Positions 6,601 through 35,637 of a stretch of 64,000 nucleotides of DNA are shown one piece after another. Location: the NCBI GenBank assembly GCA_000004695.1, contig CM000154.2, positions 2,464,001 to 2,528,000 on the forward strand, written 5' to 3'. The notes under the pieces were generated by a model. The model was not told where the DNA came from and ran no database searches. It saw only the letters and a list, made by a program, of their open reading frames with translations. Origin of the DNA: Dictyostelium discoideum. Lineage: Eukaryota. A program made the position numbers and the translations under genes. Numbering within the stretch: the first letter of the stretch is position 1; the number at the start of each line of letters is the position of its first letter.

Positions 6601-8115
6601 AAATTATCAGTTTATGATTTCATAAATGGTTCCACAAATCCAGATTTGAAGTTTGTAATTTTAAATGCACCAAGCAATATTCCAGATATTTATTTAAAAA
6701 TACAACAAGCTTATATAGATTCTTTGGTTGACAATATTATGAACACTTTGAATACGATCCTTTACGTTTGGTTGGCCATTTTTGGTTTTCTTGTTGTTAT
6801 TGGTGCTGTTTTATTCCGTCCAATTGTTAGAAAGATTTCTCGTGAAAAGATTCGTACACTTGTATTATTTTCATTGGCACCAAGAGATGTGGTAATTAAA
6901 CTTTCAACAAAGAAAATTAAAATGGTTAGTTTAGATAGTGGTAGTGAACGTGATAATCTTTTCGATACAACTGACGATGATGATGGACGTGATGATCACG
7001 AACATCTTCACCATGATAGTGATAATACCCCCACAGGAGAAAGAAAAAAGAACGACGATATTGTATCAATTAATGTTACTGATCCAACTGGTGCAACTCT
7101 CTCTTTATCTCCATCCAATCCAAGAAAACATTCTCAATCCTCAGATAATGAAGCAGAAAACCGTTCATCCAACAAAAGCAACAATCAATTTGGTGATCGT
7201 CGTCCATTAATGGATTCAACTGGTGTTTTAGCATCGACAACTTTAAATAATAGAAAATCCAATGAAGAAAAACCAAAATCAGAAGAAGAAAGCAGAGATG
7301 AATATAATAAGAAATATGGTTGGGATGGAAAGACTAAAAGAAATTTAAATAAGAAATCACTCAGATCAGTATTGAGACGTCTTCATTGGTCTTATGTTTT
7401 AGCAATCTTTTTATTATTTGGTTTTATTACAATGGGTATTTGGGTATCATTTACAGTTGTATTTAATAACTCACAATCTGGCTATACCTTGGGTAAAAGT
7501 AGTACAAGAGCATTAAACAGTCGTATCATTAATTTCTATGTAGCTGAACTATATACATTTGATAATGACGCAAACGAACAAAAAGCAATGGACGCTGTAA
7601 CCCATTTACAAGAGAACCATCAATCATTACCATACCTTGAAGAGGTTAGACCATTGATGGAAGGCTCCTATGGTTGTTGGATGCTTAATAAAAGTGATTG
7701 TCTTACAAGAGATTCAATTTATTATTCTGATGTCAGTGTTGGTCTTGACTGGTTAATCGATCAATATGCAAAACACTGTGTATCTCTATTCAACACTGAT
7801 TCTGCAACTCTTGGAACAAGTCCAGAGTTGGCCTGGTTACAAGCAATTGGCTCAAACGTAATGTTCCAAGGCTTGGATACTGCAACTTTTACTTATTTCG
7901 AATACTACCTCTCACTACAAGATTGGGCCACAAAAGTTTTGACTTCAGTTTTAGCTGTTAGTTGTGTTTTATTAGTAATTATATATCTTGTATTATTTAG
8001 ACCATTTATGAATCATCTTAGGATTCAACATATTCATACTTTGGCCTTATTACGTTTAGCTCCTGACGATATTAGATTCATGGAAGTTAGTGATAAAGTT
8101 ATTGACGAAGATTAA
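3250..8115 (+). CDS. Paralogue A of a large (~1400 aa) multi-pass membrane protein with central TPR-like soluble domain (possibly 'tiny macrocysts' Tmc-like family), 5 exons
   Basis: Exons ~3250-3337, 3436-3522, 3901-3955, 4060-4513, 4597-8115 (the last contains the 1104-aa ORF 4801-8115). Splice phases are consistent (1,1,2,0). All exon lengths are identical to paralogue B (88, 87, 55, 454 nt). There are hydrophobic TM segments in exons 4-5 and again at the C-terminus, and a TPR/HAT-like block (CGLQYFPNSDILWMAYCNFLFTVRKDRHIGYAALEKLRRMNPSFDVRFFIYQ...). The family assignment is from memory only. Confidence 0.7.
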
Positions 8116-8300
8116 AAAAAATTAAAATGAAAAAGAAAAGGATTTTTTTGTGTATATTAAAAAAAAAAGAAAAAAAAAAAAAAGAAAAAGAAAAAAAAAA
8201 ACTACAACTTTGTAAAGTAAAAAAAAAAAAAAAAACCTTTAATAAAAATCTAAAACATTTCTATTTATTTAATATTTTTTGTTGAGGTTGATAATTTGAG

Positions 8301-8332
<32 letters not shown>

Positions 8333-8425
8333 CAACCCCTATTTTTACAAATCTGATTTTTAAATTCCTCTTCGGAAATTTAAAAACATTTTTTTTTTTT
8401 TTAGTTGGAGTTAAAAATCTTTTTG

Positions 8426-8492
8426 ATTTTCATGAAATTAAAAAAAAAAAACTGTTTAAAACTTAAACAGTTTCAATTTCATGAAATATTTA
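8426..8492. repeat. Nested imperfect palindrome/hairpin in the A-B intergenic spacer
   Basis: tttcatgaaatt-A10-aactgtttaaaac|ttaaacagtttcaatttcatgaaat. The inner stem is aaactgtttaa/ttaaacagttt and the outer stem is ttcatgaaatt/aatttcatgaa. Confidence 0.6.
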
Positions 8493-8596
8493 CTATCAAA
8501 AAATTTTATTTTTAAATTATTAATCATGTTGCGCAATAGTGACGGATATGTCATTGAAAAAAAAAATTTTTAACAAAAATAAGTATTTTGGGTTTA

Positions 8597-8634
<38 letters not shown>

Positions 8635-9125
8635 AAAATAAAAATTTAATCAGTAAATTTTAAAAATATTAAAATTGTCACCATTAAAATGCCAAAAGGC
8701 CAAAGTTTTTCAGCTAATTAATTACCATGTACAAAAAAAAAAAAAATGTTTACACCCAATCAGTCAAAATAAAATTTCTCATATTTCACTTACCGATTCG
8801 AAAACAGTTATTTTAAAAACCATGACAAAAAAAAAAAATTTCAAAAAAAAAAAATTAAAAAAAAACTGTAGATATTTTTTTGATGCCCAACCAAATCTCA
8901 TTCTCAACTTATCTATAAAAAACCACTATCGTCTTTAATGTTTTATTTTTTTTTTTATTTTATTTTTAATTTTTTCTTTTTTTCTTTTTTTTTTTTTTTT
9001 AAAAAAAAATATACCTATAAATTTCTTTTTTTTAATTTTTTTTATTTTTAACAAATCAAAACTATATTTTACCTTTGACACGGTTCTTATATATAATATA
9101 TAATATTCTACTCATTGTTGGGTTT

Positions 9126-9128
<3 letters not shown>

Positions 9129-9183
<55 letters not shown>
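9129..9183. repeat. poly(A) homopolymer (~55 nt) in promoter of paralogue B
   Basis: An uninterrupted A run. Similar runs at 2601-2645, 8299-8330 and 9348-9400, and T runs at 3621-3655 and 28827-28872. Confidence 0.9.
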
Positions 9184-9186
<3 letters not shown>

Positions 9187-9230
9187 ATTTGATTAGGAGA
9201 TAATATCTCTTTTCAAAAAAAAAGAAAAAA

Positions 9231-9347
9231 ATGTCATCAACTAAATCAGGTTCCTCAAAATACTCATCTGGAAGTTCCATTAGTTTAATAATGGGTTTTT
9301 CCAGATCATTAGAAAAAGGTAATAATTAGTTTTTAAGAGGGAAGTTC

Positions 9348-9403
<56 letters not shown>

Positions 9404-12400
9404 AAATTACTAAAACCAAAAAAATATTTATTAAAAAAAAAAAAAAAATACAGGATCATTTGGTGTTTTGTATGCAATGATCAAAGGAAATACATTCCCA
9501 AGAATATTAACTATCTTAAGTATGCTAATTGAGTTTTGCCGTATGTATAAATATAATTTTAATTTTTTTTTTTTTTTCTTTTTCACTTTTTTTTTAGTTT
9601 TCAATTTTTTTTTTTTTTTTTCAATGTTAGAGTTTTAATGAATAAAATTATTTAACTCTTTTAAATTTTATATCAATGAAATAGAATTATCATCATTTGG
9701 TTTTAAACATCAATATCCATGGGGTGGAGATGCTGGATAGTAAGTATTAATTTTTTTTTTATTATTATTTTAAAAAGAAAAATATTAATACTAACATTGT
9801 ATTAATTTTAAAAAGTTATTTAAAAAGAATTATGTCACCAGTAAGCCATCCATCAGATGTATTTGGTTACTTGGGATTTACAATTTTATTTTGGATTGCT
9901 GTTGGTTTATTGATTTTGGGTTTTTTAAATATTTGGTATGTTGCATATCAATTTTATCGTGGTAAAATTGCAAATATTTGGATTATTAGAACTCTTCGTT
10001 GGTTTGTAAGTTTCTCAGTGGCTGTATTATTTATTCCAATCATTTCCTTACTTTTAATTGGTTTGGATTGTGAAGGATCAAGTGAAGGTACCATCTTAAG
10101 AAAGTTTGACAATGAAACCATTCAATGCTTTAGAGGTGCAAATTTACCAATTGCCGTAATTTCAATTATTTTAATTGTAGTTTTCAGTATTGTTGCCTTT
10201 ACATCTAGTGCAACCTATTATGAATATGATACAAATGTTAAATCAAGATTTTCAAAACCACATGCAAGAGTAAGAAATATTATTATTATTATTATTATTT
10301 CTTTTTTAAATAATTTTATTAATTTTTATATATTTTTTTTTTTTTTTATAAAAAATATTTTTTAGTTTGATGTAACAGTTTTATTTGCAAAATTTGTGTT
10401 TGCATTTTTCAATTCATTAGTCGATTTTGTACCATGGTTAACATCAATAACATTTTTTGTTTTTATGGTGATATTAACTTTTGGATCAATTATTGTTTTA
10501 CCATATAATAATCAAAGATTAAATCAAGTTAGAAGTGGATTCTATACAGTTGTTCTTTGGGTATCATTTATGACATTGGTAACTATGGGTATTAATGATG
10601 AAACATCACCAGCTACATGTTATATTACAATTGTTGGTGTATTCTTTGCTTTTCCAATTGGATTTTTCTCAAATATGTTTTATTTCAAATGGTTATCATC
10701 AAAAGTTTCCGATATTCAAATTTTAAATCAAAGTCCAAGTATGGATCTTAAAGATGCCAATAAAAAAGGTAAACGTAATAGTGTTGAAAAAGAATCATCA
10801 CCAACATCAAAAGTAACATGGGGTAAACAACCAATTACATTGGGTAGTAAAAGACAAATCATTTTCCCATTCTTTAAAAAGAAGTTTGTAATGTCATTCT
10901 TTGTTGAAATCATGGCAAGATCAATATTAAATAATAACAATGAAGGTGTTTCAAGTAGTTCAAATGAGTCAATTGAACGTGCAAATAATCTTTATCAATG
11001 TGGTCTTCAATATTTCCCAAATTCAGATTTATTATGGATGGCATATTGTAACTTTTTATTCACAGTTAGAAAAGATAGACATATTGGTTATGCTGCATTA
11101 GAAAAACTTAGAAGAATGAAACCATCATTCGATGTTCGTTTCTTCATTTATCAACGTGATAAAGAAAGAGAACAAATTATGGATTCAGATTTACGTGGTC
11201 CAGAACATACAGGTAAAATTCAAGATTTTGTCAGTTACATGGAATTTAAAAAACTTTATTATGGTGCTAAAAGACATCATGTTAAATGTTTAAATTATAT
11301 TAAAAGATTTTGGGGTCATTTATTACATGAAACAGTTGATCTTCATCGTTTATCAGATTTATCAGGTCGTATTGCAACAACTGAAAATAAAGCAAATGAA
11401 AGTTATGAACGTTTGTTAGCACTCAATCCAAATTCAGTTAGAGTACTTCGTGATTATTCTCAATTCCTTGAAGAAGTTGTAAAAGATAAAGAATCATCAT
11501 ATAAATTACAAAAGAAAGCAGAAGCAATCGAAGATATCATGAGTAAAAGTCAAACAACTGATTTTAAAATTAGTGATATTAAAGCAATTGATTCCGATGA
11601 GGATGATATTGAAAAAACTCTTCAAGAACCAACAGCAATTCAATTGGCAAAGATTGATGCAGATATTGAAAAATCAGGATCAAAATCAGGATCATCAAAA
11701 TCAAAAGATGATTCATCAGAATCAAGTAGTTCATCAAAAGGTAGAAGAGGCAAATATAAGGAATTCCAACAAAGTAATGCAATTAACAAACTTTCATGGT
11801 TAATGATTGGTACAACATGTTGTTGTATTATATTTTTAATTGTTGTATTGGTTGTATTCAGAGGATTAGAAGTTAAACATACCAATGCATATCAAGGTAT
11901 CATTTCAATCACAGATTGTGCCAATGAAGCAGTTCAAATGGGTATGCATTTAAATGCAATGCAAGCATATGCTTTGGTTGCTGGTGTTGGTAATAATACA
12001 GTTGAAGCATCATTAATTGAAATTGCTAGAAGAAGAGCTTTGGTTAAAAGAGGCATTATCATTATGAAGAATATTCATGATGCAATTTATTGGGGTGAAG
12101 GTAATCCAGTTAGTTATGTTGGTGATAATTTATCCCAATTGAAAGCAAGAGATGGTTATGATATTTTCGATATTGGTTCAGTAATTTTCACATTTGATCA
12201 ATTCAATCGTTCAAGTACTTTATTGGATAATAAACAAATGATTGAACTTTACAGTCAGCCATCAGTCAATATGTCGGTTTTAGTTGCACCACCAGGTTCT
12301 AATACAACTTCACTCTATACTCAAACTTATAACGCTTGGAAAGCTGGTAATGCTTTCATTGAAAGTGCAATGCTTGCTAGTGATGTTACATTTGATGAGC

Positions 12401-12820
12401 TTAGATACTCTGTCAACCAAAATCCAAATTTCAAATTTGTAACAATTAACGCCCCAGTAATTATGCCAGATATTTATAATAAGGTTCAAACAGCTTATAT
12501 CGATTCATTGGTTTCCGATATCACTGGTACATTAGATGCAATTCTCTATACTTGGTGTGGTATTTTCGCTGTACTCTTTTTAATTTGTGCCGTTTTATTC
12601 CGTCCAATTGTTAGAAAGATTTCTCGTGAAAAGATTCGTACACTTGTATTATTTTCATTGGCACCAAAAGATGTTGTTGTTAAACTTTCAACAAAGAAAA
12701 TTAAAATGGTTAGTTTAGATAGTGGTAGTGAACGTGATAATCTTTTCGATACAACAGATGATGATGGACGTGATGATCATCTTGGAGAAGATGACAACAA
12801 TATTCAAACCCCAGTTGGTG

Positions 12821-12854
<34 letters not shown>

Positions 12855-13932
12855 TAACAATAATAATGGTTCAATATCATCAAACGTTACAAAATCAGAT
12901 GGAGAAATTGGTTCAGATGGTGTTCGTAGTAGTAGTGGTAGTAATGTTTTAAATACATCATCACCATATAGAGATAGACGTCCATTAATGGATTCAACTA
13001 GTGTTTTGGCATCAACAGCAACATTAAATAATAGAAATGTAAGATTACAAGCTAAAGATGAAGAAATAACTAATGGTGGTGGTGAAAGAAAAGGTAGTGA
13101 TGCAACAAGAACAGCTCTTTCAGAGGATAAAAAATATGGTTGGGATGGAAAGAGTAAAAGAAATTTAAATAAGAAATCACTTAAATCAATTTTAGGTCGT
13201 CTTCATTGGAGTTATATCCTTGCTACATTCTTATTGTTTGGTTTCATCACTATGGGCATTTGGGTAACATTCACTGTCGTATTTAATAATTCTCAATCTG
13301 GTTATACATTGGGTAAAAGTTGTTCAAGATCATTGAATAGTCGTGTCATCAATTATTATGTTGCCGAATTGTATACCTATAGTCAATATGTAAGTACTCA
13401 AAATATGGTTGATGCAATCACAGAATTACAAAGCAGTCATCAATCATTGCCATACCTTGAAGAGGTTAGACCATTGATGGAAGGTTCATACGGTTGTTGG
13501 GCACTTAATAAAAGTACTTGTCTTCCACCATCCTCTATGTACTATGAAGAAGTTAATAGTGGATTGGATAGAGTTGTTGACAGTTTGGCAAAGAAAGCAA
13601 TTAATTTGGCTTATACCGATCAAGCTGCCTTATTAGATAGTCCAGATTTACAATGGTTCTTAGCACTCATCGATTATATTTTCATTGGTCTTGACACTGC
13701 AACCTTCACTTATTTCGACTATTTCTTAGAAAAACAAGAATGGGCAAATACAGTTTTAACCGCTATTCTATCTGTTAGTTGTGTTATTCTATTGGTAGTT
13801 CATGTAGTATTATTTAGACCATTTATGAATCATCTTAGAATTCAACATATTCATACTTTAGCCTTATTACGTTTAGCTCCTGATGATATTAGATATATGG
13901 AAGTTAGTGATAAAGTTATTGATGAAGATTAA
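9231..13932 (+). CDS. Paralogue B of the large multi-pass membrane/TPR-like protein (tandem duplicate of 3250-8115), 5 exons
   Basis: Exons ~9231-9318, 9454-9540, 9685-9739, 9816-10269, 10366-13932. It has the same exon architecture and phases as A. Protein identity with A ranges from ~65% to ~98% depending on segment, and it carries a poly-N insert (N~25) near 12830. Confidence 0.7.
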
Positions 13933-15409: not shown

Positions 15410-18400
15410 TTATTTTGTAAATTGTTTAATTTTTTCTTGTAAGGAATTAATTTGTAGCGAGAGAGAAGGAGTTAAATTTAATTCTTTTTGTAATAATATA
15501 TCAGATAAACTGAAATTTTTTAAATTAAATTGAACAACAGCAGAATAAAAATTAGTTAAGGATAGTTTTGAATTAATGGTTGATGATTCCTCTAATAAAT
15601 TTAAAGCATTCTTCATATCATTTGTGAATTGTTTTAAATTATTATTTGTTAATTTACTTGAACCAATAATTAGAATACCTTTTAATAATTTTATAACTGG
15701 ATTATCTAAATAATTATTATTATTTAAATTTTCTTCTAATAATTTTAATGAATCTTTAAATTTCTTTTGAATACAATAAATTCTAATAATTTTCGATATT
15801 GTTGTTAAAATTAAACCATTATTATTATTATTATTATAATTATTGTTATTGGTTGTTTGTTGTTTTAATACTAAAAGTGATCTATTTAAACAAAGTAAAG
15901 AAGCATCTAATTGATCATTACTTTGATAAATATCACAAAGATTATGATAGATTGGAATTGAATTTGGTTCTAATTTTAATGCATCCTTTAAAATTGATAA
16001 TGCTTTAACTTTATCGCCTTGTTTTAAAAATTTCTTTGCTTCTAGTGATAATAATACAGATTTCTTTTCATTTGTATAATTTGTTTGTTTTTGATAATTT
16101 GAAATTAGTTTATCAAATTCAGCAATATCATCAGTGGTACCACTATCACCTTCACTTGTAATTGAAAGTGCTAATTTAAATTCAAGTTCAATTAAAATTT
16201 GTTGAAATTTAAATTCTTCTGTTATTGTTGTTGTTGTTGTTGTTGTTTTTGTTAACAAATATTGTACAACATTCCAACATGATTTAGTTGATTCCCAATC
16301 CTCTTTATTATCAGTATAAAGTGAACGCCAATAAAGTAAATTTTGAAGATGAACCCAAGGTTGAATATTATTATTAGTAGTTGATAATGGATTTGAATGA
16401 ATGATACGTTTGATTATAACAATGGCATTATCTAAACATTTTGTCCAAGGTGATTGTAAATCATAAAGATTTGCTTTTGCAATGATTTCCAATTCTTTAA
16501 TAGTTGGTGGTTGTAATACTTTGTGATCAGGACCAACACTTAATTGACCCATACCAGAATATTCTTGACTTTGTTTCTTATTTAATGAATGATTTAATAA
16601 TGATAATGGTAAATTACATGGATCATTATTTTCACTATTACTATTACTATTACTATTATTAATGAAATATTTCATTTCTAAATCAGCTAAACTTGTCCAA
16701 CCAATTGGCTCTAATGGGAATAAATGAATTAATTTTTGTAATTGTTTTCTGGCTTCTTCAATTTCATTATTTAATAAATGAATTTTTGATAATAATAAAT
16801 AGCTATTGGATTCCAATTGTTCAACTGTTGTTTGTAATTTAATTAAAACATTCTTTGCTAAATCATTTTTACCACAATCAATATAGATTGCAGCTAAATA
16901 ATACCATGATTTATAGAATCTTTTGTCAATTGTTATAATTGCTTCTAAAGTTTTAACAATTGTATCAATTTGTTGTTTTTTACCACTATTATTATTATTA
17001 TTACAAGTATATTGAATCTTTGCTAATGTAAATAATAAATTTTGTTTTCTAATGGTTGCAGTTTCTAATGATTTTGGAATTTGTGAAATTGATTTCTTCA
17101 TTGCATCAATTGATTCATTTAATTTATTTAATTTACAATAAATTAATGAAACCAATTCAAATAATATACTATTTGATAATGATGGTTCTGTTGTTTGAGT
17201 TGTTGTAATATATGGTTTAATTGTTTCTAATGCTTCATCAAATTTACCTAAATAATATTGAGTTCTTGATAAATTAATTTTAACATATTTTAATTTTTCA
17301 TCATTTGAAAATTCAATACCATCATTTAATGGTTTATCAGAGAATAATATTGAACCAATTGAACAACTTGAATTATTATTATTTAATGTAATCTTTGATT
17401 CATTATCATTATCATTATTTTTAATGATGGTTTTACTACTGTTGCTACTATTTGATAATAAATTTAAAGCAGATTTAAAATATTTTTCAGAATTTTCATA
17501 ATCATTTTGATGGCTGTAAACTAAAGCTAATGAATTATTTCCTTCAATTGAATTTGGATTTAATTCAACGTATTTGTATAATACTGAATAACTAGTTTCA
17601 CTATAACCTTCTAATAATGATGTTATACCATAACCTAATAACCCTTGACCAATTGGTGATGATTCTAATGCATTATCAATATAATTATAATCTTCTCTAC
17701 CTGTTGAATTATTATTATTATTATCATTATTATTATTATTATTAATATTTTTATTACTTGATTTAACTTCATTAATTAAACCTTGCAAAGACCAAGAAAT
17801 AACAGAATCAATATTATTATTTTTGGCAATCATTAAAGATTTATCAGATTGTTCAATGAAACCATATTCAAAATATAATAAAGTTAAATTATTATATGGT
17901 TCAGATTTTGAAGAATCTAATTGAATCGATCTAATTAGGGCATGTTGACTTTGGGCAGGGAATTTGTCCATTAAAACAACACCTAATAAATTCCATAACA
18001 TTGGGTCTGATGGTGATAAATTTAAAGCTTCAACAACACATTTAATTGATGATTTTAATAAATTCTCTGTTTCTTCTTTTGTAACTTTTAAATTTTTCTC
18101 TTGTTGTTGCTTTCCTTGTTGTTTTAAATAATTTTTAAAAATAATATATTGATTATAATAACCAATTGATAAATCTTGTAATGAATGGGAATTTGAATGA
18201 ATTCTAACACAATTAAAATATGCATTTGAAGATTGTTTTGATTTTTCAATTAAATAATCATAATTATTATTATTATTACTATTACTATTGTTATTATTAT
18301 TATTTGGTAAATTTAAGAAATAACTTGAAATATCAGCATATAATCTCCATAATGAATGAAAATTATTTTCTTTTTCTAATGCAATTTTAATTGAAGATTC

Positions 18401-21114
18401 AGCTAATTCGAGATGAATTAAAGATTGACGAAAATTTCTAAATTTATATTGTTCAATAGATAATTGTAATAAACATTCAGCTTTACCTTTTAATGAAGGA
18501 ACATTATTTTCCAATTGTTTTAAAACTCTATCATATTCATTGATAGCATCATCATAGAGACCTAAAGTTTTTGATAATGTTGCAATTTGAAAATTGATAT
18601 CAGTTGCAATACGATTTTCATTATCTAAAATCTCTTCTGCCTTTTTCAAAGATTTTAAAGCTGCAACATATTTGAATTGTCTACGATATGCTTCGGCCAA
18701 TGTACGCCAATAACTCTCATTCAAAGGCTCACCCTTAATTGCATTCAATAGGGATACTACGGAATTATGTATATCTTTATTATCCATTTGATAGATTGCA
18801 AGTCTATAGAATGCCCATGAACATTTTATAACATTAATTGGGAATCTTTTAATTTGTTTAGCTGATAAACAAAAATCGGTAATCTCTTTATACAATGACA
18901 TCACCAATGAAGTTTGACCACTCTCTGCATAGATTTCACCCAACTCAAATCCTGCTTCACCATTTAAAATATCCAATTGTAAACTTTTTTGATAACATTT
19001 CTTTGATCTCTCTTTTTGACCAATCATTTTATAAAGTGTACCTAATTTTGCAAACGTATCAGAATGATTTGAATTTAATTTTGCTGATTTTAAAAATTGT
19101 TGAATTATAAATGAACAATTATCATTATTATTATCATTATTATTATTATTTTCAATTTTATTTAATTCCATTAAAACTAAACCATAAACATAATAATTTA
19201 AATAATTATTAGCAGTTTCACCATTTAATTCAATTATTTCTTTTAAATTATCTTTACTTTTAATTAATGATTCTTTTGATTCTTTTAATAAAATATCAAT
19301 CCAAATTAAATAAATTTTTGATAATTCAATAATTTTCTTATTTTGATTATTATTTTGATTATTATTTTGATTATTATTAATAATTAATTGAAATAATTCT
19401 TTTGATTTTTTATAATCTTTAATTGAATAAAAATTTAATTTACTTTGTGAAAATGTTAAATAATTAAAATGAATTGGGAATTTATTAATTAATGATTCTA
19501 ATAATGATGATGCCAATTCAAAATTACAATTGAATGATAATGATTCAACTAAAATCAATTGAAGTTTAATGAAAATATTATTAAAATAATTGGCACCACC
19601 AACTGATCTTTGTTTTTGCTCATAGACAATCATTGACTTTTTAACTATATCTCTAACACGTTCATGATTTTCAACTTTTAAATACCATTTTGATAATGCT
19701 AAATAACCTAATAATGATTCGGTACTACCTGAATTTGAAAATCCTTTCTCTATTAATTGTTTACTTTGTTCACTATAATCTTTTAATTTAAAAACTTTAT
19801 AAAATCCTAACCCTATCCAACCTAATCCCCTATTTGCATATTTATTTGTTAAAATATTTGAAATTTCATTAATTTTTTCATATAATTCATTATTATTCTT
19901 TGATTCTTGATCATCATCTTCATCATCATCATCATCATTAAAATTAAATTCTTCTTCTAATAAATTTATTAAATTTTCTAATGAATAAATTGGTGTTGAT
20001 AACATTTCATTCATTCTTTCACAATTTTCATAAATTTCTTTATAAAGTTGTTTTTGTTTTTCTTCATCTTTATTCTCTTCATTACTATAAATTCTTCTTT
20101 TACCAATTAATATTTGAATGAAATGAGTATAAATTCTTATCATTTGTTCATTTGTTAAAATATTTAAATTTATTTTTGTTAATAATTCTTCATAAACTTT
20201 TAACTATATATATATATAGTTATAAAAAATAAATAAATTAATATTAATATTACTCTATATATATATATATTGGTTTTTAATTTTTTTGGAAAAAAAAAAA
20301 AAAAATCAAATACAAACATTAAAATTATTAATTAATGATTTATTTAATTCAAATTCAATTTTATCTCTTTCTTGTTTTTGTTCAGGTGTATGTTGAATTG
20401 CACCTAATACATGTAATTTTGAGTAATCTACAATTGGTATATTCTTCTCACGTAATTTTTCATCGATTTTAGTTTTTAAAGTGTTTAAATAGTATTGATA
20501 ATTTGCATCTTCAAATTTTTCTAATAATTTAATTCTATCTATTTTTGATGATTCACTATCATTTTCTCCATCATCACTACTTTTTTCATTTTCAAATAAA
20601 ATTGGTGAAATCAAATCAATTGTAGTTTTATAATCTTTTAAAAAGTAACTAATTTCAATTAATCTAAATACCAATTCTTTTTTTTTTTGTTTATCTGTTG
20701 TTAATGGAATTAATTCTTTTAATGTGTTTGATAATTTATCATTTTCATTTGTTTTATTATATAATTCTAGTAAACCCTAATTTATTTTATTTTATTTTAT
20801 TTTATTTTATTTTAAATTTTAATATTTATAAGTTTATTTTGTTTCAAAGAAAAAAGGAAAAAGAAAAAAAAAAAAATTTAACTAATTACCCTTAATGGAA
20901 CTGGTGAATTCTGTATTTTTAATGCAGCAATATATGATTTTTCAGCAGCAGCTAAATTATTTAAATTAAAATTTGAAACACCTAAAAAAAGATGAATCAT
21001 GAAATTTTGATCATCATATTGTACTATCTCATTACAATTTTCTAATGCTGTCTTATAATCTTTTTTATCAATAGCCTCCCTTGTCTCTTTTAATTTACTT
21101 TTAATATAGTCCAT
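15410..21114 (-). CDS. ski3: SKI3/TTC37-like superkiller TPR-repeat protein (~1825 aa, 3 exons)
   Basis: Exons (minus strand) ~20890-21114, 20318-20776, 15410-20203. Donors are GTAATT and GTTTGT; acceptors are tag|GGTTTA and tag|TTAAAAG. N-terminus MDYIKSKLKETREAIDKKDYKTALENCNEIVQYDDQNFMIHLFLGVSNF..AAAEKSYIAALKIQ parallels human TTC37 [71 protein letters not shown]. Numerous TPR-like repeats follow throughout the long exon. Confidence 0.75.
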
Positions 21115-21942: not shown

Positions 21943-23524
21943 ATGACTCAATTTATTGATAGAAATCAATCATATAAATTAAGAAACTCTACATTATTTC
22001 CACACGATATAACAATTGAAGATTGTCGTGAAGGTAAGCATTTTTTTTATTTTTTTTTATTTTTATTATTTGAAAACCTCAACATATTAATATTTTTCTT
22101 TTTTTTTTTTCTTTTATAGCCATAAAAGATGCAGCTGGATTCAGAGAAACAACAAAAAATGGATTAATTTGTTTTAATTATGATTTTTGTTTTAAAGATT
22201 CATTCCCAAATCCAGATATTGAACCAGATGATAAAAAAGCATTCCTTTATAAAGTAAGAAGAGAATGTAGAGGTTTAATTTTCAATGAAGCAACAAGTGA
22301 AATTGTTTGTAGAAAATTACATAAATTCTTTAACATAAATGAACAACAAGAAACAAAAGAAGTAAGTTTTATTTTATTTATTTTATTTATTTAAATAATA
22401 ATATTAATTTATTTTTTTTTTTTTTATTTTTTATATTTTTTATAATTTTTTTTTAAAAAAAAAAGGAATTAATTAAATTAGATGAGAATTTCATTGTATT
22501 AGAAAAATTAGATGGTTCATTAATTGCACCAATTTTAATTAATGGTAAAGCAGCATGGGGATCAAAGAGTGGTATTACAGATTTAACAATTAAAGTTGAA
22601 AAACATATTCAATTAAAATTAAAAGATAATAATATTAGATATGATGATTTCGCATTAGAATGGATGTTAAAAGGTTATACACCATTATTTGAATGGTGTT
22701 CAGAATCAAATCAAATCGTATTATATTATGCAATTGATAATTTAAATTTAATAGCCATGAGAAATATGAAAACTGGTGAATATTTAACTCATGATGAGAT
22801 GGTAAAGATTACAGCACCATTCAATGTACCAGTGGTAACATGTGTTGATTTAAAATCACATACACATTTCTCAAAGCTTTATAGTGAATTAAATGGTGCT
22901 GATAAGAGCATCACCACCACCTCTGAAGAATTTATAAATACAGGCGCATCAAAATTATTGAAAATTGTATTAGGCTTAGAGAATTGTGAAGGTTATATAT
23001 TAAAATTCGATTCAGGTAAGACCTATAAGATGAAGAGTAATTGGTATTTCGAGTACCATTCAATTGCACCAAATATTAAATATGTTTTAGAAAAGGATGT
23101 TTTCTATTTAATTTTAAATGATGGTTTAGGTGGTATCGATGATATTATTGCAAAGATCACTGCTTCAGGACCTGTACCACAAAGATATTACCAAATTCAA
23201 GAGTTTGGTAAAGAATTATTACAAAAACTTGAAGATTTATCTATTAGAGTCATTCAATTCATTAAAGAATCAAAATCACAAGGAAAATTAAGAAAACATA
23301 TCTCCTCTGATAATTCGGTTTCAAATGCTTTCAAAAACTTTGTTTTTAGATTTTATGATTCAGTTGAAGCAAATGATAAAGTTACAAAACATATTGGTGA
23401 TGTTTCAAAACATATAATGGAAAAATTAAAACTTCTTTGCACTAATTCTTCTAAATTAGAAGAATGTAGAATTATTCTTGGTGGTATTAAATTTACTGAA
23501 GATAAGCCAAAATTATCTGATTAA
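21943..23524 (+). CDS. T4 Rnl1-family RNA ligase (nucleotidyltransferase), ~463 aa, 3 exons
   Basis: Exons ~21943-22033, 22120-22361, 22466-23524 (GTAAGC and GTAAGT donors). Four motif matches to T4 Rnl1: ECRGLIFNEATSEIVCRKLHKFFNINE vs T4 [30 protein letters not shown]; motif I lysine box VLEKLDGSLIAPI vs T4 ILTKEDGSLVSTY; NQIVLYYAIDNLNLIAMRNMKTGEYLTHDEM vs T4 [56 protein letters not shown] vs T4 [25 protein letters not shown]. Confidence 0.8.
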
Positions 23525-23551
23525 TTAAAAAAAAAAATAAATAAAAATAAT

Positions 23552-23628
<77 letters not shown>

Positions 23629-23903: not shown

Positions 23904-24857
23904 ATGAGTAACATCGATGAAAGTAAAAAAAAAGATAAAAATATTAATAATGAAGAAACTTCATTAAATCAAATAACATCATCACTTTCAATGATTTCTT
24001 TAACTCCATCAATACCTCCATCAACACCACCATCAACACCAAATAATAACAATAAAAATAAAACATTTAATAACAGTGGTAGTGCAATTAAAAATAATTT
24101 TAATAATAATGGATCAATTATAGGAGAAAGAGCAGTTCAATATTTTGGATATTTAGTATTATCACAAGGTCATATATGGAGAGCCACGACATCAAATGAT
24201 ATTGGTATTGATGGTCAAATTGAATTTGTTAATAATTTTTCAAGAAAAGGTAGTAAAGCTATAATTTGTGGAGTTCAATTAAAAGCAACGGTTGTAGATA
24301 AAAATGCTTCAATTAATATTGAATCTGTAAATTATTGGATTAAATATCCATTACCAGTTATAGTAGTTCAAATTTATTTTAAACAACCAATTAATTCATT
24401 ACCAACTTGTTTATTCTTAACAAAAGAACAAGTTCAAAGTTATATAAATTCAACAACTTTAAATACACCTAATAAAAATTCATCTTCATCATCTTCAACT
24501 TTTTCTTATTTTTCACCTGTTCAATCACCATCACCATCACCATCATCATCATCGAATTCCTTAATGACAATGGTTATTGAGTCAAGAGTATTTGATAAAA
24601 ACAAAGCAAAGGATTTCTCATGTGATGCAGTTCAAGAATATTGTATTGAATATATGAGAAATAATTATGTAAATTTTATTGATAATAGATTTCAAGATTA
24701 TTTAAAAATTCAAGAATATTCAAAAATGAAAGCTGATCAAATTTGGAAAGATTTAGTTCATAAATTTTTAAAACTAAAACCAACTTATAATTTAAAAGAA
24801 GTTATAGTTTTTAATTTAAATAATATTAATAACAATAATAACAATAATAATGATGAA

Positions 24858-24921
<64 letters not shown>

Positions 24922-25496
24922 GTTTTAATGATGATGATTATGAAAATGATGACAATGAAACTTTTTTAATAAATATTCAAAATTTATTCGAATTCCCATT
25001 TTCAATAATTCAAGATAATCATAGAGATTATTTAAAAGAACAATTAATTGAATTTGGATATGACCATAATGTATCACTAAGAAATATTTGTGATCAAATT
25101 TACCATTTATATAACAATAATAATAATAATAATAATAATAATGAATTTATTAATTTATCAAAATGGTTTAGTTATTTATATTGTATTTTAAATATTGATC
25201 CAATTAAATCAATTGAAAATGATATTTTAGAGATTAATTTAAATTCATCAATTAAAAAAGATATTATTTACATAGAGATTTTAATTTTAGAAATTTGTGA
25301 TTTCATATTACCAAATTATTATAAAGAAATTATTACAACTCAAACAACTGCAAAATTAATAATTATTAAAAATATTATAAATCTTTCAAAAACTAGTAGT
25401 AGAGGTGGTGGTGGTACTGATGGCGGTAGTGACGGTGGTGTTAATGAATTATTAAATAATTCCATAAATTTATTAAAAAAACAAATAAATAAATAA
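23904..25496 (+). CDS. DUF4365-like / PD-(D/E)xK restriction-endonuclease-fold protein with long poly-N linkers (530 aa)
   Basis: Single ORF. N-terminal domain ERAVQYFGYLVLSQGHIWRATTSNDIGIDGQIEFVNNFSRKGSKAIICGVQLKATVV...NYWIKYPLPVIVVQIYF matches the DUF4365 pattern (aE..fg.l....g......D.GID..iE......G......QvK......W...p.PvllV), i.e. a D...(I/V)D...E.(Q/V)K nuclease-like core. The remainder is low-complexity (N25, S/P-rich). The domain call is from pattern recall and has not been searched. Confidence 0.5.
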
Positions 25497-30618: not shown

Positions 30619-33181
30619 ATGAGAAATAAATATATAATATTTTTATATTTATTTGTAATAATATCACAGATTTATTGTAGTGATCCTCCAAAATGTAAAA
30701 CAACAAAAAATGTTTACAAGGATAGTCAGGTATTTGGAGATGGAGATTCTAAAGAAAAGAATGTGGAATGGTGGTTTTTAGAGCAATTGAGTCACAGTAA
30801 AGGTGCTATTTATACTGATAGCACATTAAAAGAAATGAATTCAGAGATTAATGAAATAGTTGATTTTAATATTAGAGATCCAAATACAACAAAACCAAAC
30901 CCGATTACATCAACATACAAACAGAGTTTACCAAATGAATCTGGTGCTATTTTATTTAATAGTTTATCTTATAATGATCAACCCAGTCATGGTGATAATA
31001 GTGTTTGTGTTAATTATTTTATCTTTTTTTTTTTTTTTTTTTTTTTTTTGATTATTATTTTGTTGTTAATAGTTTTCTAATATTTTTATTTTATTTTTAT
31101 TTTTTTTATTTATTTATTTATCTAAAAAAAGGCACATGCAAAAGGATTTTTCATTTGGAATGAAAATGGGGGAATTCATGTAATTCACAGTGTTCCAAAA
31201 TCTCCAGAAACAGGATATGAACCTCTTTTTAATTTCAATGAAAATACTTTAAATAATCAACATGCTCAACATTCAATTTGTATAACTTTGTCAAAAGAAG
31301 AACTTTATATTATTCCAAAGTATATTATTTATAGTAATTTAAATATTCAAACCATTAATACAGTTTCAACAGTAAATGGTAATAAAAAGGTATCATCAGC
31401 CAATTATTATTCCGAAAATCTCCAAACAAAGGTTGAAAGGATAAGCACAGGAGTCATTAAGTTGGAAAAAATTAATAGTACAATTTTAGCATCACAAATT
31501 CCCAAAACTTTTAAAGAATTGGATAGTCTAATGAGTGAATATATTTTTGTTGGAAAAAATAATGATGGTGATCCTGATATATGGGATGGAATTATTTATT
31601 TAAATAAATGGTCACAATTGGTAAGTAATTTTAATTATAAATTTGTGTTAATAAATCATCAAACTTACATTCTTAAAATAGGCAGATTTAATTCTAGACA
31701 AAGATATTACATCATCAGATACAGCTCAAAATCCTCTTGAAACAAATGTTCACTATAATAAAATTTATGAGAGTAAAAATAAAGGGGATTACTTCATTCA
31801 AACAACAAATAAATACCTCTATAAAGAGTATAATGAAAAAATTGAGGAAAATATTAAATTTTTAATAATTTGGCATTATATAGATAATTTTAAAAATGGT
31901 AATAATTTTAAAACAATGGTCCATACTCAAACAAAGGTTTCAAAAAGTAAAAATGCAATTTCTCAAGCAGTTGAATCAATTTATCTTTCTTACAGATTCG
32001 AAACACCTTGGTCAAAAGTTATTAGTGCTGATTCAGGAAGTGACCATTCAAAAATTTCTTATCAATTCAATAATATAGATAAAGTAGATAGCGGTGGCGG
32101 TGGTGGGACTATTTGCTTTGGTGATTTAAATTGGCAAAGAAAGCAAGAGGCACGTGGAGGTGGTGCTTTTTGTAGTGATAAAATGAAATATCTTTCTGAA
32201 TACTTTTACAGAAGAGTTGGTATAATTAGACACCCAGAGGAAAATCAATATCTTAAAAAAGAATTATTAAGATTAAATAGCATTGCAGGTCAAAAGTTGA
32301 ATTTAAACGGATTAATAACTAAATATCCAAAGGAACTCAAAGTCATTTTAGGTGACAGAAAGCTAGACTTTGAAACCAAGGTTAAAGGTTATGGAGATGA
32401 TGAAAAATACTATCATTTGAATCCATTTATTATCGTTTACAATAATGAAAAAGATGAAGATAAATTATTTTCAAATGAATATAATTATGGTTATGACAAT
32501 GTTTATATTCCACTATTAACCCAACTTAAGGATCAAACTTCAACAAATAAATACAAATCAGAGTTATTCGATTTCAATGTGTTTCCATCAATTAAAAGGG
32601 AAATTATTTTATGTGATGATAATGATGTCACTTGTAGATTTGAAAAATCCAAATCTTACCAATTGTATAAAGATATCTATGTTGAATCAACATTAACAGT
32701 TACTTTAAAAGATAGACGTGTAAACGATGAAACAGAAAATACAATTGTTGTACCAACATCAACAGTCACACCTTTCCCAGACAAGATATATATCGATTTA
32801 AAAACTGTGGATTCAGTTAAAAGACTCTATGAAAAATTGAATTTTAAAAAAAATGAAAACATCATTCAATTGAAAGAAGTCAATATAGAAGATTTAGAAA
32901 AATTTAAATTCCCAGATGAAGGCGATCAAAGTGATAGCGAAGAAGGTCATGATGATAAAGATTATAATGAAATTAATAAAAAAATATGTAAAGCTTATCC
33001 AAGTGATACAGATTCAAAAATCATTAATTATCATCCGGATTGTCAAGATCATCTTATCTATTGTATTCTCTTAACAGAAAATAAACATGGTGATCTACAA
33101 AATATCAATTCCATTGAAGAGTTTAGAAAAGTTTTGGGTGAATATACCGAAGGTGTAAGTATTAAATTTATTTTATTTTAA
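30619..33181 (+). CDS. Deoxyribonuclease II (DNase II) family protein with long C-terminal extension (~790 aa, 3 exons)
   Basis: Exons ~30619-31002 (GTTTGT donor), 31132-31620 (GTAAGT donor), 31682-33181. Signal peptide MRNKYIIFLYLFVIISQIYC. It has ...SLSYNDQPSHGDNS|AHAKGFFIWNENGGIHVIHSVPKSPE (human DNase II: [31 protein letters not shown], the first HxK catalytic motif). The second motif is GSDHSKISY...GGGGGTICFGDLNWQRKQEARGGGAFC (human EDHSKWCVS...RNQGEEQRGGGTLC). After the second HxK the ORF continues unbroken for ~370 more codons. Confidence 0.75.
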
Positions 33182-33717: not shown

Positions 33718-35637
33718 TTAAATTATTGATAAAACCATGTTTTTATTTTGTTTTAATGCAAACATAAGTTGAATATGAAACTGAATAAGTGGAGTTTTTA
33801 TGGTATTATCTGTGCATGTTAGATAAGTTGAAAGATCATAATGAAGTTCTTTTTCATTTGTTGGACATTTGACATTAGTTCCAATCGTTGGTTGGAGATC
33901 TATTGAATATGGATTGGCTGAATCATAAATACATTTGGAATCATCATCAATTGATGGAGTTGGTGGTAATGTTGGTTCTGGAATTATGTTATCATCTTGT
34001 GATGGTTGAGATTTCATTGTACATCTATAGTATGGATAATCTGTGGTGCATGTAATTGAGTTCTTATAGAAAAAGATTTTAGAATGTCAATATAATCTTT
34101 TTCAGATACAGATGATACCCGTATCTGCTAAACAAGAAATCGTATTATTATCTTGACTTAATGATTCATCTTTTGAACATGAAAGTGTAGTATTCATAAT
34201 GAAGTAATTTTCAGTTTCATTATTATAACATCTTAATGGACTATTATTAGAGTGTGTTGATAATGAATTTTCAATGAGATTATATTGACATTCTAAAATA
34301 TTTGAATATTCATCATCTTCAATTGGATCGGATTAATTTTAATAGAAGTTTCTGTTTTTTCAATGGTTGTTGTTGGTTTATTATTAAATTTAACAACAAT
34401 TTCATCAGATCCATCATCATATTCTATAAAGTTATTACCAATAAAATTGGCTTCTCATATGAGAAGTAAACGGTTTCATTTGAATCTTGATTACCAACTT
34501 TAATAATAGTATTGAATTTATGGTTTTATTTTCATTCTGGTTGTAATGATCTGGTAACTCTTTTGGAATAAAGTTATTACCTGTTATTATAATTTCATTG
34601 TTACCATCTGTTGAAGAATAGTAATGTGTTTCATTTCCAGTGGAATTATTGATTGTATCAAGTTTTGGTGGATCGTAAGAATACAAATAATCAGTATGAT
34701 TTGGTGATTGAAGGCCTACTTTTACAATGATTGTATGATTAACACCAATTCCTGGTGGGATTGTACAATTTAATTCATAGGAACTGGTCCAATTAATTGA
34801 TTGACAAAGATAGCTTTCACCAATTAATATTTCTGATTGATTTAACCATTGTGCAATAGTTTCATTGTTTTCATAGTATGGACTTAAATTTTCGAATGGT
34901 AAAAAGTTGTAACCATTTATAACGATAACCTCACCACCATCAGTGTTTGTTGATAAAGAGTTTTGTGTTAATTTTTCAATCCATGGTTCATAATAAGAGT
35001 AGGTGAAAGTTTGGTTTTGGTATTCTGAAATTTTGATACTGATTGATTTATCTATACCAATCGAATCAGCTAAAATACAATTTACTATATCAAAGTTTTC
35101 ATCGATATATTGATAATTATTATATTTTAAATATTGACAAATTCCTTGATCTTTTATATCTATATCTTCAATAATTTCTAAACTTTCACAGAAATCGAAT
35201 TCGCAACTTGCATAAAACTCTTGATTGATAATAATATCCACTTGTTCTGCAATGTATGTACCTAAACCTCTACCTATTACTGTGAAATAATTTGTACCTG
35301 TTGTGTTTAATTTTGATTCATAATTTGAAAGAATGACTTGGTCTATAATTGGTGAAGGATAACTAAATGATATTTCTTCTAAACTGTATTGATCATCTGA
35401 ATGAACAACTACAAGTCCACTAATAAATCCAAATGGTGCTGAAGCAATAATCTCTTGGTTTGAAATGAATTCAATATCATTTATTAATATGTCTCCAATT
35501 TTTACTGATTGACCTTTTCTAAAATTATTACCATTAATTGTAACTTTTGTATTGTAATCTCCATTTGTTGGTAATATACTATTAATAATTGGTCTTTCAA
35601 ATGAAAATTCTAAATTAATATCATCGTTTATAAACAT
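33718..35637 (-). pseudogene. IPT/TIG-repeat (Tgr/tiger-like) cell-surface protein pseudogene, disrupted by frameshifts/stops
   Basis: The 400-aa ORF 34435-35637 carries repeated TIG-like units (..TKVTINGNNFRKGQSVKIGDI.., ..EVIVINGYNFLP.., ..NEIIITGNNFIP..) and ends in out-of-frame junk. More in-frame fragments lie at 33718-34420 in different frames (e.g. ORF 33718-34017), separated by stops. There is no clean splice-site rescue. Confidence 0.5.

Follow-up and report, generated by a model that had tools for sequence, protein, structure and literature searches.

A T4 Rnl1-type RNA ligase predicted from a resident, intron-containing gene of Dictyostelium discoideum

Bacteriophage T4 encodes the RNA ligase Rnl1, whose gene rnlA is functionally paired with pseT and whose C-terminal domain confers a preference for breaks in tRNA anticodon loops. 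The Rnl1 family is wider than its phage representatives: it includes the fungal and plant tRNA ligases, a ligase of Branchiostoma and seven genes of Naegleria gruberi, and stand-alone ligases of the Naegleria type are thought to be part of RNA repair toolkits (PMC4408790). In bdelloid rotifers, RNA ligases acquired by horizontal gene transfer, PF09511 types among them, are strongly induced by a fungal pathogen and have been proposed to counter ribotoxins; a review quoted in the same paper states that RNA repair systems have spread widely to microbial eukaryotes by lateral transfer (PMC11258130). The present analysis concerns DDB_G0289211, a gene of Dictyostelium discoideum located at positions 21943-23524 (+) of a 64,000-nucleotide stretch of contig CM000154.2 (positions 2,464,001 to 2,528,000 of the forward strand; GenBank assembly GCA_000004695.1), hereafter the window. 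Judged from its sequence, the product is a stand-alone ATP-dependent RNA ligase of the T4 Rnl1 branch, belonging to the sub-branch typified by Sinorhizobium phages phiM19 and phiN3. A preliminary description of the window had recognized this ligase and regarded Rnl1 enzymes as essentially phage and bacterial, a generalization that is overstated in the light of Trl1 and of the Branchiostoma, Naegleria (PMC4408790) and rotifer (PMC11258130) members.

The window is very AT-rich, with a GC content of 21.8%, and the gene comprises three exons extending from an ATG at 21943 to a TAA that ends at 23524. Joining 21943-22033, 22120-22361 and 22466-23524 removes two GT..AG introns and generates an open coding sequence (CDS) of 1392 nucleotides that specifies 463 amino acids; the exons have 26–27% GC. 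An exact-sequence look-up matched the spliced product to DDB_G0289211 of strain AX4 (EAL62839.1, XP_636340.1, UniProt Q54HU9): the gene model in the window is thus the public one, and the coordinates and two introns first proposed from the letters are exact. The same protein sequence is found in other D. discoideum assemblies. UniProt and UniRef name Q54HU9 'T4 RNA ligase 1-like N-terminal domain-containing protein', and the NCBI name is 'hypothetical protein'. The features of the gene are as follows.

21943..22033 (+): exon 1, codons 1-30 and the first base of codon 31, starting at the ATG; the spliced product equals XP_636340.1.
22034..22119 (+): intron 1, 86 nt, GTAAGC...TATAG, phase 1, 13% GC; site after CDS nt 91 shared by D. 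citrinum and D. firmibasis.
22120..22361 (+): exon 2, rest of codon 31 to codon 111, carrying RECRG and HKFFN, as placed by splicing and alignments.
22260-22274 (+): RECRG, with R81 equivalent to T4 R54; columns invariant in the 92-sequence alignment.
22263..23056 (+): nucleotidyltransferase (adenylyltransferase) domain, residues 79-308, with intron 2 inside; Pfam PF09511, E 1.3e-41.
22320-22334 (+): HKFFN, with K99 and F101 equivalent to T4 K75 and F77 in the alignment to T4 Rnl1.
22362..22465 (+): intron 2, 104 nt, GTAAGT...AAAAG, phase 0, 3% GC; the site after CDS nt 333 is conserved.
22466..23524 (+): exon 3, codons 112-463 and the TAA stop, as placed by splicing.
22502..22519 (+): motif I, EKLDGS, residues 124-129, with Lys125 (22505-22507) the predicted AMP-accepting nucleophile, equivalent to T4 Lys99; K125, D127 and G128 are invariant.
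22691-22693 (+): E187, equivalent to T4 E159 by residue mapping; K145, equivalent to T4 K119, lies in the same domain.
22850..22948 (+): insertion in the D. discoideum protein, approximately residues 240-272, a lower-confidence surface segment (pLDDT 66-73) that is a gap in all eight aligned relatives.
22988-22996 (+): EGY, residues 286-288, containing the equivalents of T4 E227 and G228 by residue mapping.
23027-23047 (+): KMKSNWY, residues 299-305, containing the equivalents of T4 K240, K242 and Y246 by residue mapping.
23090..23476 (+): C-terminal all-helical domain, approximately residues 320-448, counterpart of the T4 Rnl1 C domain by fold and profile-profile comparison.

Evidence for the splicing pattern comes from the identity of the gene model with the public one, the conserved intron positions and the continuity of the alignments. 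Logan contigs of 1.1 kb that bear the exon-3 open reading frame (ORF; P0009) still contain the sequence of intron 2; they are therefore genomic and give no transcript support for the introns. A long (AAT)n trinucleotide microsatellite lies at 23545-23625 (+), about 20 nt past the ligase stop, in what is presumed to be 3' untranslated region or an AT-rich intergenic tract.

Profile searches place the protein firmly in the Rnl1 family. PF09511 (RNA_lig_T4_1) is the sole Pfam match above cut-off, scoring 143.4 bits against a threshold of 28.3 over residues 79-308 and profile positions 1-220 of 227. The model that the preliminary description had singled out, PF09414 (RNA_ligase), is a separate one and reaches 21.1 bits, under its cut-off of 27: the family assignment holds, through the Rnl1 model rather than the one named. 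PHROG 562, 'RNA ligase and tail fiber protein attachment catalyst' (RnlA), matches residues 40-428 with an E value of 3.2e-53. The top PDB sequence matches are three T4 Rnl1 entries (E approximately 4e-18), and no best similarity of the DNA-ligase kind, with nucleotidyltransferase and OB domains, emerged. When a profile built from 92 sequences was compared with the PDB, T4 Rnl1 was retrieved at E 1.6e-49 over chain residues 53-365, whereas the fungal Trl1 ligase domains were matched in their nucleotidyltransferase part only (E 1e-10 to 6e-4). Alignment with hhalign gave a probability of 99.94% and an E value of 2.7e-37 across T4 residues 31-362 of 374. Kinase, phosphatase, cyclic phosphodiesterase or other extra domains were not found in the 463-amino-acid protein with Pfam and NCBIfam models, in agreement with the initial view that no healing domain is fused to the ligase; PADLOC likewise returned no match for it.

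The diagnostic motifs are in place, with EKLDGS at residues 124-129 and the EGY/K.KS.WY block at residues 286-310, and whether the comparison is pairwise, by profile or by structure, the motif I lysine and this block, both pointed out at the outset, are matched to their counterparts in T4 Rnl1. K125-L-D127-G128-S of Dictyostelium is aligned with K99-E-D-G-S of T4. In an explicit alignment R54, K75, F77, K99, D101, G102 and K119 of the phage enzyme are identical to R81, K99, F101, K125, D127, G128 and K145, and E159, E227, G228, K240, K242 and Y246 to E187, E286, G287, K299, K301 and Y305. Mutational work by the Shuman laboratory is said to have established as essential a set of T4 Rnl1 residues that includes R54, K75, F77, G102, K119, E159, E227, G228, K240 and K242. 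Over the 92 homologs, 11 of the 13 mapped active-site columns are invariant and the two others, F101 and K145, are conserved in at least 90% of sequences.

An AlphaFold2 model of the protein (mean pLDDT 91.4, pTM 0.89) bears out the structural correspondence with T4 Rnl1 that had been suggested for comparison. A Foldseek search of the PDB with this model ranks T4 Rnl1 first, at E 1.6e-17, and the ligase (LIG) domain of Trl1 second; among viral structures in BFVD the best match is the ligase of Sinorhizobium phage phiN3, with a target-normalized TM score of 0.81. Both domains of the modelled fold match T4 Rnl1, and the Rnl1 fold covers the whole 463 amino acids. The C-terminal all-helical domain is found, by fold and by profile-profile comparison, to be homologous to approximately residues 253-374 of T4 Rnl1. 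The Pfam model T4_Rnl1_C (PF20819) matches many metagenomic relatives and gives 133 bits with T4 itself, and at E <= 0.01 it finds nothing in the paralog described below or in the Acanthamoeba and phage phiM19 proteins; as it is silent on the amoebozoan and phiM19 members, the correspondence of this domain rests on profile-profile and structural alignment. The product of DDB_G0289211 is almost certainly an Rnl1-fold protein with an intact active site, and it is probably an active RNA ligase.

Homologs are present in every dictyostelid sampled, namely D. citrinum, D. firmibasis, D. purpureum, Polysphondylium, Acytostelium, Tieghemostelium, Heterostelium and Synstelium, and beyond them in Physarum, Balamuthia and Acanthamoeba. 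D. discoideum itself harbours a second copy, DDB_G0286041 (Q54MC4), of 443 amino acids and 38% identical to the DDB_G0289211 product. The catalytic residues are kept in both paralog clades and across Amoebozoa. Two further models, P0151 of Heterostelium album (861 amino acids) and P0013 of Synstelium (514 amino acids), join the Rnl1 ligase to aminotransferase (PF00155) or Ras/Roc GTPase domains; these are probably merged gene predictions, not real fusions.

Relatives abound in viruses: at least 521 IMG/VR viral contigs encode proteins with 28–39% identity, mostly full length, and 1491 GenBank phage records match the ligase. A neighbour-joining tree (computed in numpy from 179 sequences and 375 columns, with 200 bootstraps) unites all 18 named amoebozoan and 4 environmental proteins in one clade, with a bootstrap value of 74% that rises to 94.5% without Acanthamoeba. 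Within it the dictyostelid orthologs form a clade (77%) whose sister is the clade of the paralogs, and the amoebozoan group as a whole is nested among phage and bacterial sequences. An amoebozoan-only profile scores its own members at 377-602 bits and all other sequences at no more than 369 bits; other named eukaryotes are absent from its top 120 matches. Since the clade spans two phyla, Evosea and Discosea, the pattern is consistent with a single ancient acquisition, after which the gene descended vertically and was duplicated in the dictyostelid stem. An early amoebozoan probably took up the gene, in a single event, from a phage or a bacterium; thereafter the gene would have gained introns and host composition and duplicated in the stem of the dictyostelids. 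A separate acquisition by Acanthamoeba may also have occurred. L025 (266 kb) and L066 (336 kb) are the contigs that stand nearest as sisters in the tree, and two of their flanking genes match arginase and peptide deformylase. Transfer by way of giant viruses is not supported, the giant-virus ligases in BFVD being more distant (17–22% identity); no giant-virus genes were recognized among the ORFs flanking the ligase on L025 and L066, which were inspected by eye without individual searches.

DDB_G0289211 is a resident host gene, as had been maintained from its introns and codon usage, and it is under purifying selection. In D. citrinum and D. firmibasis, introns interrupt the CDS at the same two sites as in D. 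discoideum, a phase-1 site following nt 91 and a phase-0 site following nt 333. The second of these is common to the D. purpureum ortholog and to the paralog clade (P0018, of the DDB_G0286041 type), and this intron therefore predates the gene duplication, as ortholog and paralog clades share the aligned position; the intron after nt 91 is absent both from D. purpureum and from the paralog. The Acanthamoeba castellanii homolog contains nine introns. Synteny is maintained in D. citrinum and D. firmibasis, with a large tetratricopeptide repeat (TPR) protein encoded upstream on the opposite strand and a gene for 530-585 amino acids downstream. The ratio of nonsynonymous to synonymous substitution (dN/dS, Nei-Gojobori) is 0.10-0.14 among the three close Dictyostelium species and 0.23 against D. 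purpureum. Third-position GC content (GC3) is 14% in the ligase gene and 7–17% in the neighbouring ORFs.

The pair of genes bordering the ligase was surveyed at every distinct viral locus (n=113 genes): 23 encode an AAA_33 P-loop kinase, 4 a HAD_PNKP phosphatase, 3 a Metallophos_2 and 2 a Metallophos protein; overlapping KTI12 and Zeta_toxin matches are probably the same proteins as those matched by AAA_33. As they are often flanked by kinase and phosphatase genes, Rnl1-type members of phages and prokaryotes commonly reside in heal-and-seal RNA repair cassettes. One metagenome scaffold of 93 kb from ENA (L003, positions 7559-10630) accommodates a HAD_PNKP phosphatase of 146 amino acids, an Rnl1-type ligase of 386, an ORF of 94 and an Rnl2-type ligase of 346 (PF09414/PF21189), thus combining two different sealing enzymes in one compact RNA-repair cluster. 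Two metagenomic proteins of 701 amino acids, P0076 and P0102, display an unusual architecture in which an AbiEii-type nucleotidyltransferase toxin domain (PF08843, residues 30-257) is fused to an Rnl1-type ligase (PF09511, residues 351-554).

The reading that we favour, with moderate confidence, is that the Rnl1-type ligase performs the sealing step of a heal-and-seal pathway for the repair of RNA breaks, probably in tRNA, alongside RtcB, and that it was captured once from a phage or bacterium. Enzymatic activity, substrate and physiological role we infer by homology. In a first step Lys125 would attack ATP to form a ligase-AMP adduct; the AMP would then be handed to the RNA end bearing a 5'-phosphate; and finally the 3'-OH end, with its 2'-OH, would attack so as to close the phosphodiester bond. 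The substrates would be broken tRNAs or other stem-loop RNAs. Because the helical C domain is equivalent to that of T4 Rnl1, sealing in tRNA or stem-loop repair is the likeliest job. Healing would be supplied in trans by separately encoded enzymes, the candidates being Clp1/Nol9 5'-kinases and a 2',3'-cyclic phosphatase; Dd-Clp1 and Dd-Nol9 exist and are candidate 5'-kinases (PMC10598085). RTCB is present in Dictyostelium (PMC13247085), and for this reason the Rnl1-type ligases are more likely to be repair or accessory enzymes than an essential splicing ligase; RtcB is presumably the main tRNA-splicing ligase of this organism. Taken separately, a role of DDB_G0289211 in the repair of tRNA or other RNA breaks is close to an even call.

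A bolder extension, which must be considered speculative, is that Amoebozoa domesticated a phage counter-defence enzyme early and kept it, duplicated in dictyostelids, as innate RNA-repair immunity. The two ligases, together with host 5'-kinases and phosphatases, might re-seal tRNA anticodon or rRNA loops cut by the anticodon nucleases and ribotoxins of bacterial prey, intracellular pathogens and fungal competitors, in a T4-like pathway parallel to RtcB.

A number of observations weigh against the repair interpretation. With the NCBIfam model TIGR02308 ('T4 RnlA family RNA ligase') the protein obtains 97.8 bits, well under the equivalog cut-off of 242.25 (residues 79-431, profile positions 51-364 of 373), and is on that account a divergent relative and not an NCBI equivalog. 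PF20819 has no match to it at E <= 1, and as this model is silent and TIGR02308 is below cut-off, the tRNA specificity of T4 is not simply transferable. A healing enzyme is neither fused nor adjacent to the Dictyostelium ligase gene, and no phage-type Pnkp turned up in Dictyostelium, although no search aimed at one was made. The tree behind the single capture is a neighbour-joining one in which the inclusion of Acanthamoeba is moderately supported. In the literature searched there was no paper citing the accessions of the gene, protein or paralog, and no biochemical, expression or knockout data.

Among other explanations, the one that survives best would make the protein a ligase of tRNA splicing or unconventional mRNA splicing in a 5'-phosphate pathway of the yeast and plant type, with separate healing enzymes, redundant with RtcB or replacing it. 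The Rnl1 family does include Trl1, the LIG domain of which is the second-best structural match; yeast Trl1 can be replaced by T4 Pnk plus Rnl1 (cited in PMC10946435), and stand-alone sealing ligases are known in eukaryotes, as exemplified by the 'sealing-only' Trl1 of Mucorales (PMC10946435) and the Branchiostoma ligase (PMC4408790). Against this, RTCB is present in Dictyostelium (PMC13247085), and the restriction of the clade to Amoebozoa, together with its nesting among phage sequences, is not what a core splicing enzyme would show. Furthermore, YRxxR, the 2'-PO4-binding motif of Trl1 (PMC10946435), is missing from the DDB_G0289211 product and the 10 other amoebozoan members checked, by a sequence-pattern check only. 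With this motif absent and a C domain of T4 type, end specificity is predicted to be T4-like, for a 2'-OH, and Trl1-like chemistry was rejected on the grounds of the missing motif and the different type of C domain. A splicing role is accordingly regarded as unlikely.

Another possibility is that the protein is an active or partly active nucleotidyltransferase with a different task: sealing of nicks in duplex RNA or RNA:DNA, RNA circularization, or a structural role that involves no catalysis. Annotations of T4 RnlA list, besides ligation, a function in tail-fibre attachment, the insertion at residues 240-272 and a C domain divergent enough to escape T4_Rnl1_C hint at altered use, and the presence of other RNA ligases in Dictyostelium, RtcB (PMC13247085) and the Rnl5-type, DraRnl-like enzyme EAL61744 (PMC1807946), would permit specialization. 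Nevertheless, the catalytic residues that were checked show little or no variation and are under purifying selection in the two paralog clades and throughout Amoebozoa, both domains match the T4 Rnl1 fold, and a Pfam scan revealed no OB or other duplex-clamping domain; this alternative is improbable. As to the idea that the locus is a contaminant from a bacterium or phage, was inserted only very recently or is a pseudogene in decay, a notion to which only the phage and bacterial nature of the nearest non-amoebozoan relatives lends colour, it is refuted to the point of being negligible by spliceosomal introns conserved in position in other species and in the paralog, the identical AX4 reference protein, the occurrence of the gene in other D. 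discoideum assemblies, synteny, a dN/dS near 0.1 and host-like GC3.

The gene that follows the ligase, at 23904-25496 (+), is a single ORF of 530 amino acids. Approximately residues 70-156 match Pfam DUF4365 (E 1e-10) and the PADLOC model 'Aga_REase-PNTD1-PNTD2' (E 9e-11), and beyond this match comes a long Asn-rich stretch of low complexity. Both models seem to represent a nuclease (REase) domain of the kind found in prokaryotic defence, and the protein has no sequence relatives in the PDB. A functional link with the ligase was considered and rejected, the two genes being adjacent only in D. citrinum and D. firmibasis besides D. discoideum: no homolog of the DUF4365 gene lies within 1.5 kb downstream of the D. 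purpureum ligase, nor beside the paralog, and the adjacency is consequently taken as coincidence. The upstream neighbour, at 15410-20143 (-), encodes a TPR-repeat protein of 1577 amino acids that is syntenic in the sister species. Farther upstream, ORFs of 1104 and 1178 amino acids at 4801-8115 (+) and 10396-13932 (+) both match Pfam TPR_TmcB (E approximately 3e-46 to 3e-48), an apparent tandem duplication of TmcB-like genes. Of the ORFs at 31916-33181 (+) and 34435-35637 (-), one shows a partial DNase II match and one IPT/TIG domains. ARAGORN found no tRNA genes in the whole window.

DDB_G0289211 is an uncharacterized, already domain-annotated member of a known family and not a new kind of system; its UniProt domain label, its paralog and its amoebozoan orthologs indicate that it is no singular oddity. 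What is new here is the amoebozoan-wide clade, the paralog with its shared intron, the purifying selection and the finding that phage relatives occur in repair cassettes. Dictyostelium is a phagocyte that feeds on bacteria and is amenable to genetics; its RNA ligases appear to number at least four, namely RtcB, the Rnl5-type enzyme and two of Rnl1 type. If the Rnl1-type genes seal RNA breaks induced by ribotoxins or stress, this organism would be a convenient eukaryote in which to study defence by RNA repair, a concept that so far draws its support mainly from heterologous experiments in yeast and from expression data in rotifers. The gene also provides a clean, datable case of ancient transfer from phage or bacterium to eukaryote in which the acquired sequence has become fully host-like.

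Compared with known systems, the Dictyostelium enzyme shares with T4 Rnl1 (RnlA; PDB 2C5U, 5TT6, 9DO4) the identity of all checked catalytic residues and the format of a stand-alone sealing enzyme without a fused healing domain. Overall identity is nevertheless only ~23–26%, and the Dictyostelium protein differs in its longer N-terminal segment (residues 19-78), which is common to phiM19-type ligases and not found in T4, in its 33-residue insertion, in falling below the TIGR02308 cut-off and in a C domain undetected by T4_Rnl1_C. It is moreover the product of a eukaryotic nuclear gene with introns, and no PrrC/Pnkp partner system is known in the host. The closest likeness is with the phage and metagenomic ligases of the Sinorhizobium phage phiM19/phiN3 type (~390-410 amino acids): the phage protein is matched at full length, N-terminal extension included, over residues 19-454 with 29% identity, and this sub-branch, the source of the best viral structural match (TM 0.81), is where the amoebozoan clade nests. 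Identity to such relatives is at most ~38%, and their genes often adjoin polynucleotide kinase or HAD/metallophosphatase genes, whereas the Dictyostelium gene does not.

Fungal and plant Trl1/RNL are likewise products of eukaryotic nuclear genes, and the stand-alone format is approached by the Mucorales 'sealing-only' Trl1 and the Branchiostoma ligase (PMC10946435, PMC4408790). The Dictyostelium enzyme is set apart from Trl1 by a different C-terminal subdomain lacking YRxxR, by the absence of kinase (KIN) and cyclic phosphodiesterase (CPD) domains and by its position on the phage side of the family; the absence of the two domains is not decisive by itself, because Mucorales Trl1 lacks both too. 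Naegleria gruberi, with its seven Rnl1-family genes, and bdelloid rotifers, with horizontally acquired PF09511 and PF09414 genes, resemble Dictyostelium in containing uncharacterized Rnl1-type ligases in eukaryotic genomes; as they are not among the top matches of the amoebozoan profile, these are probably independent acquisitions or distant branches. Finally, human RLIG1 (C12orf29) is, like the enzyme proposed for Dictyostelium, a eukaryotic ATP-dependent ligase that joins 5'-PO4 and 3'-OH RNA ends and for which tRNA is a candidate substrate (PMC11494293).

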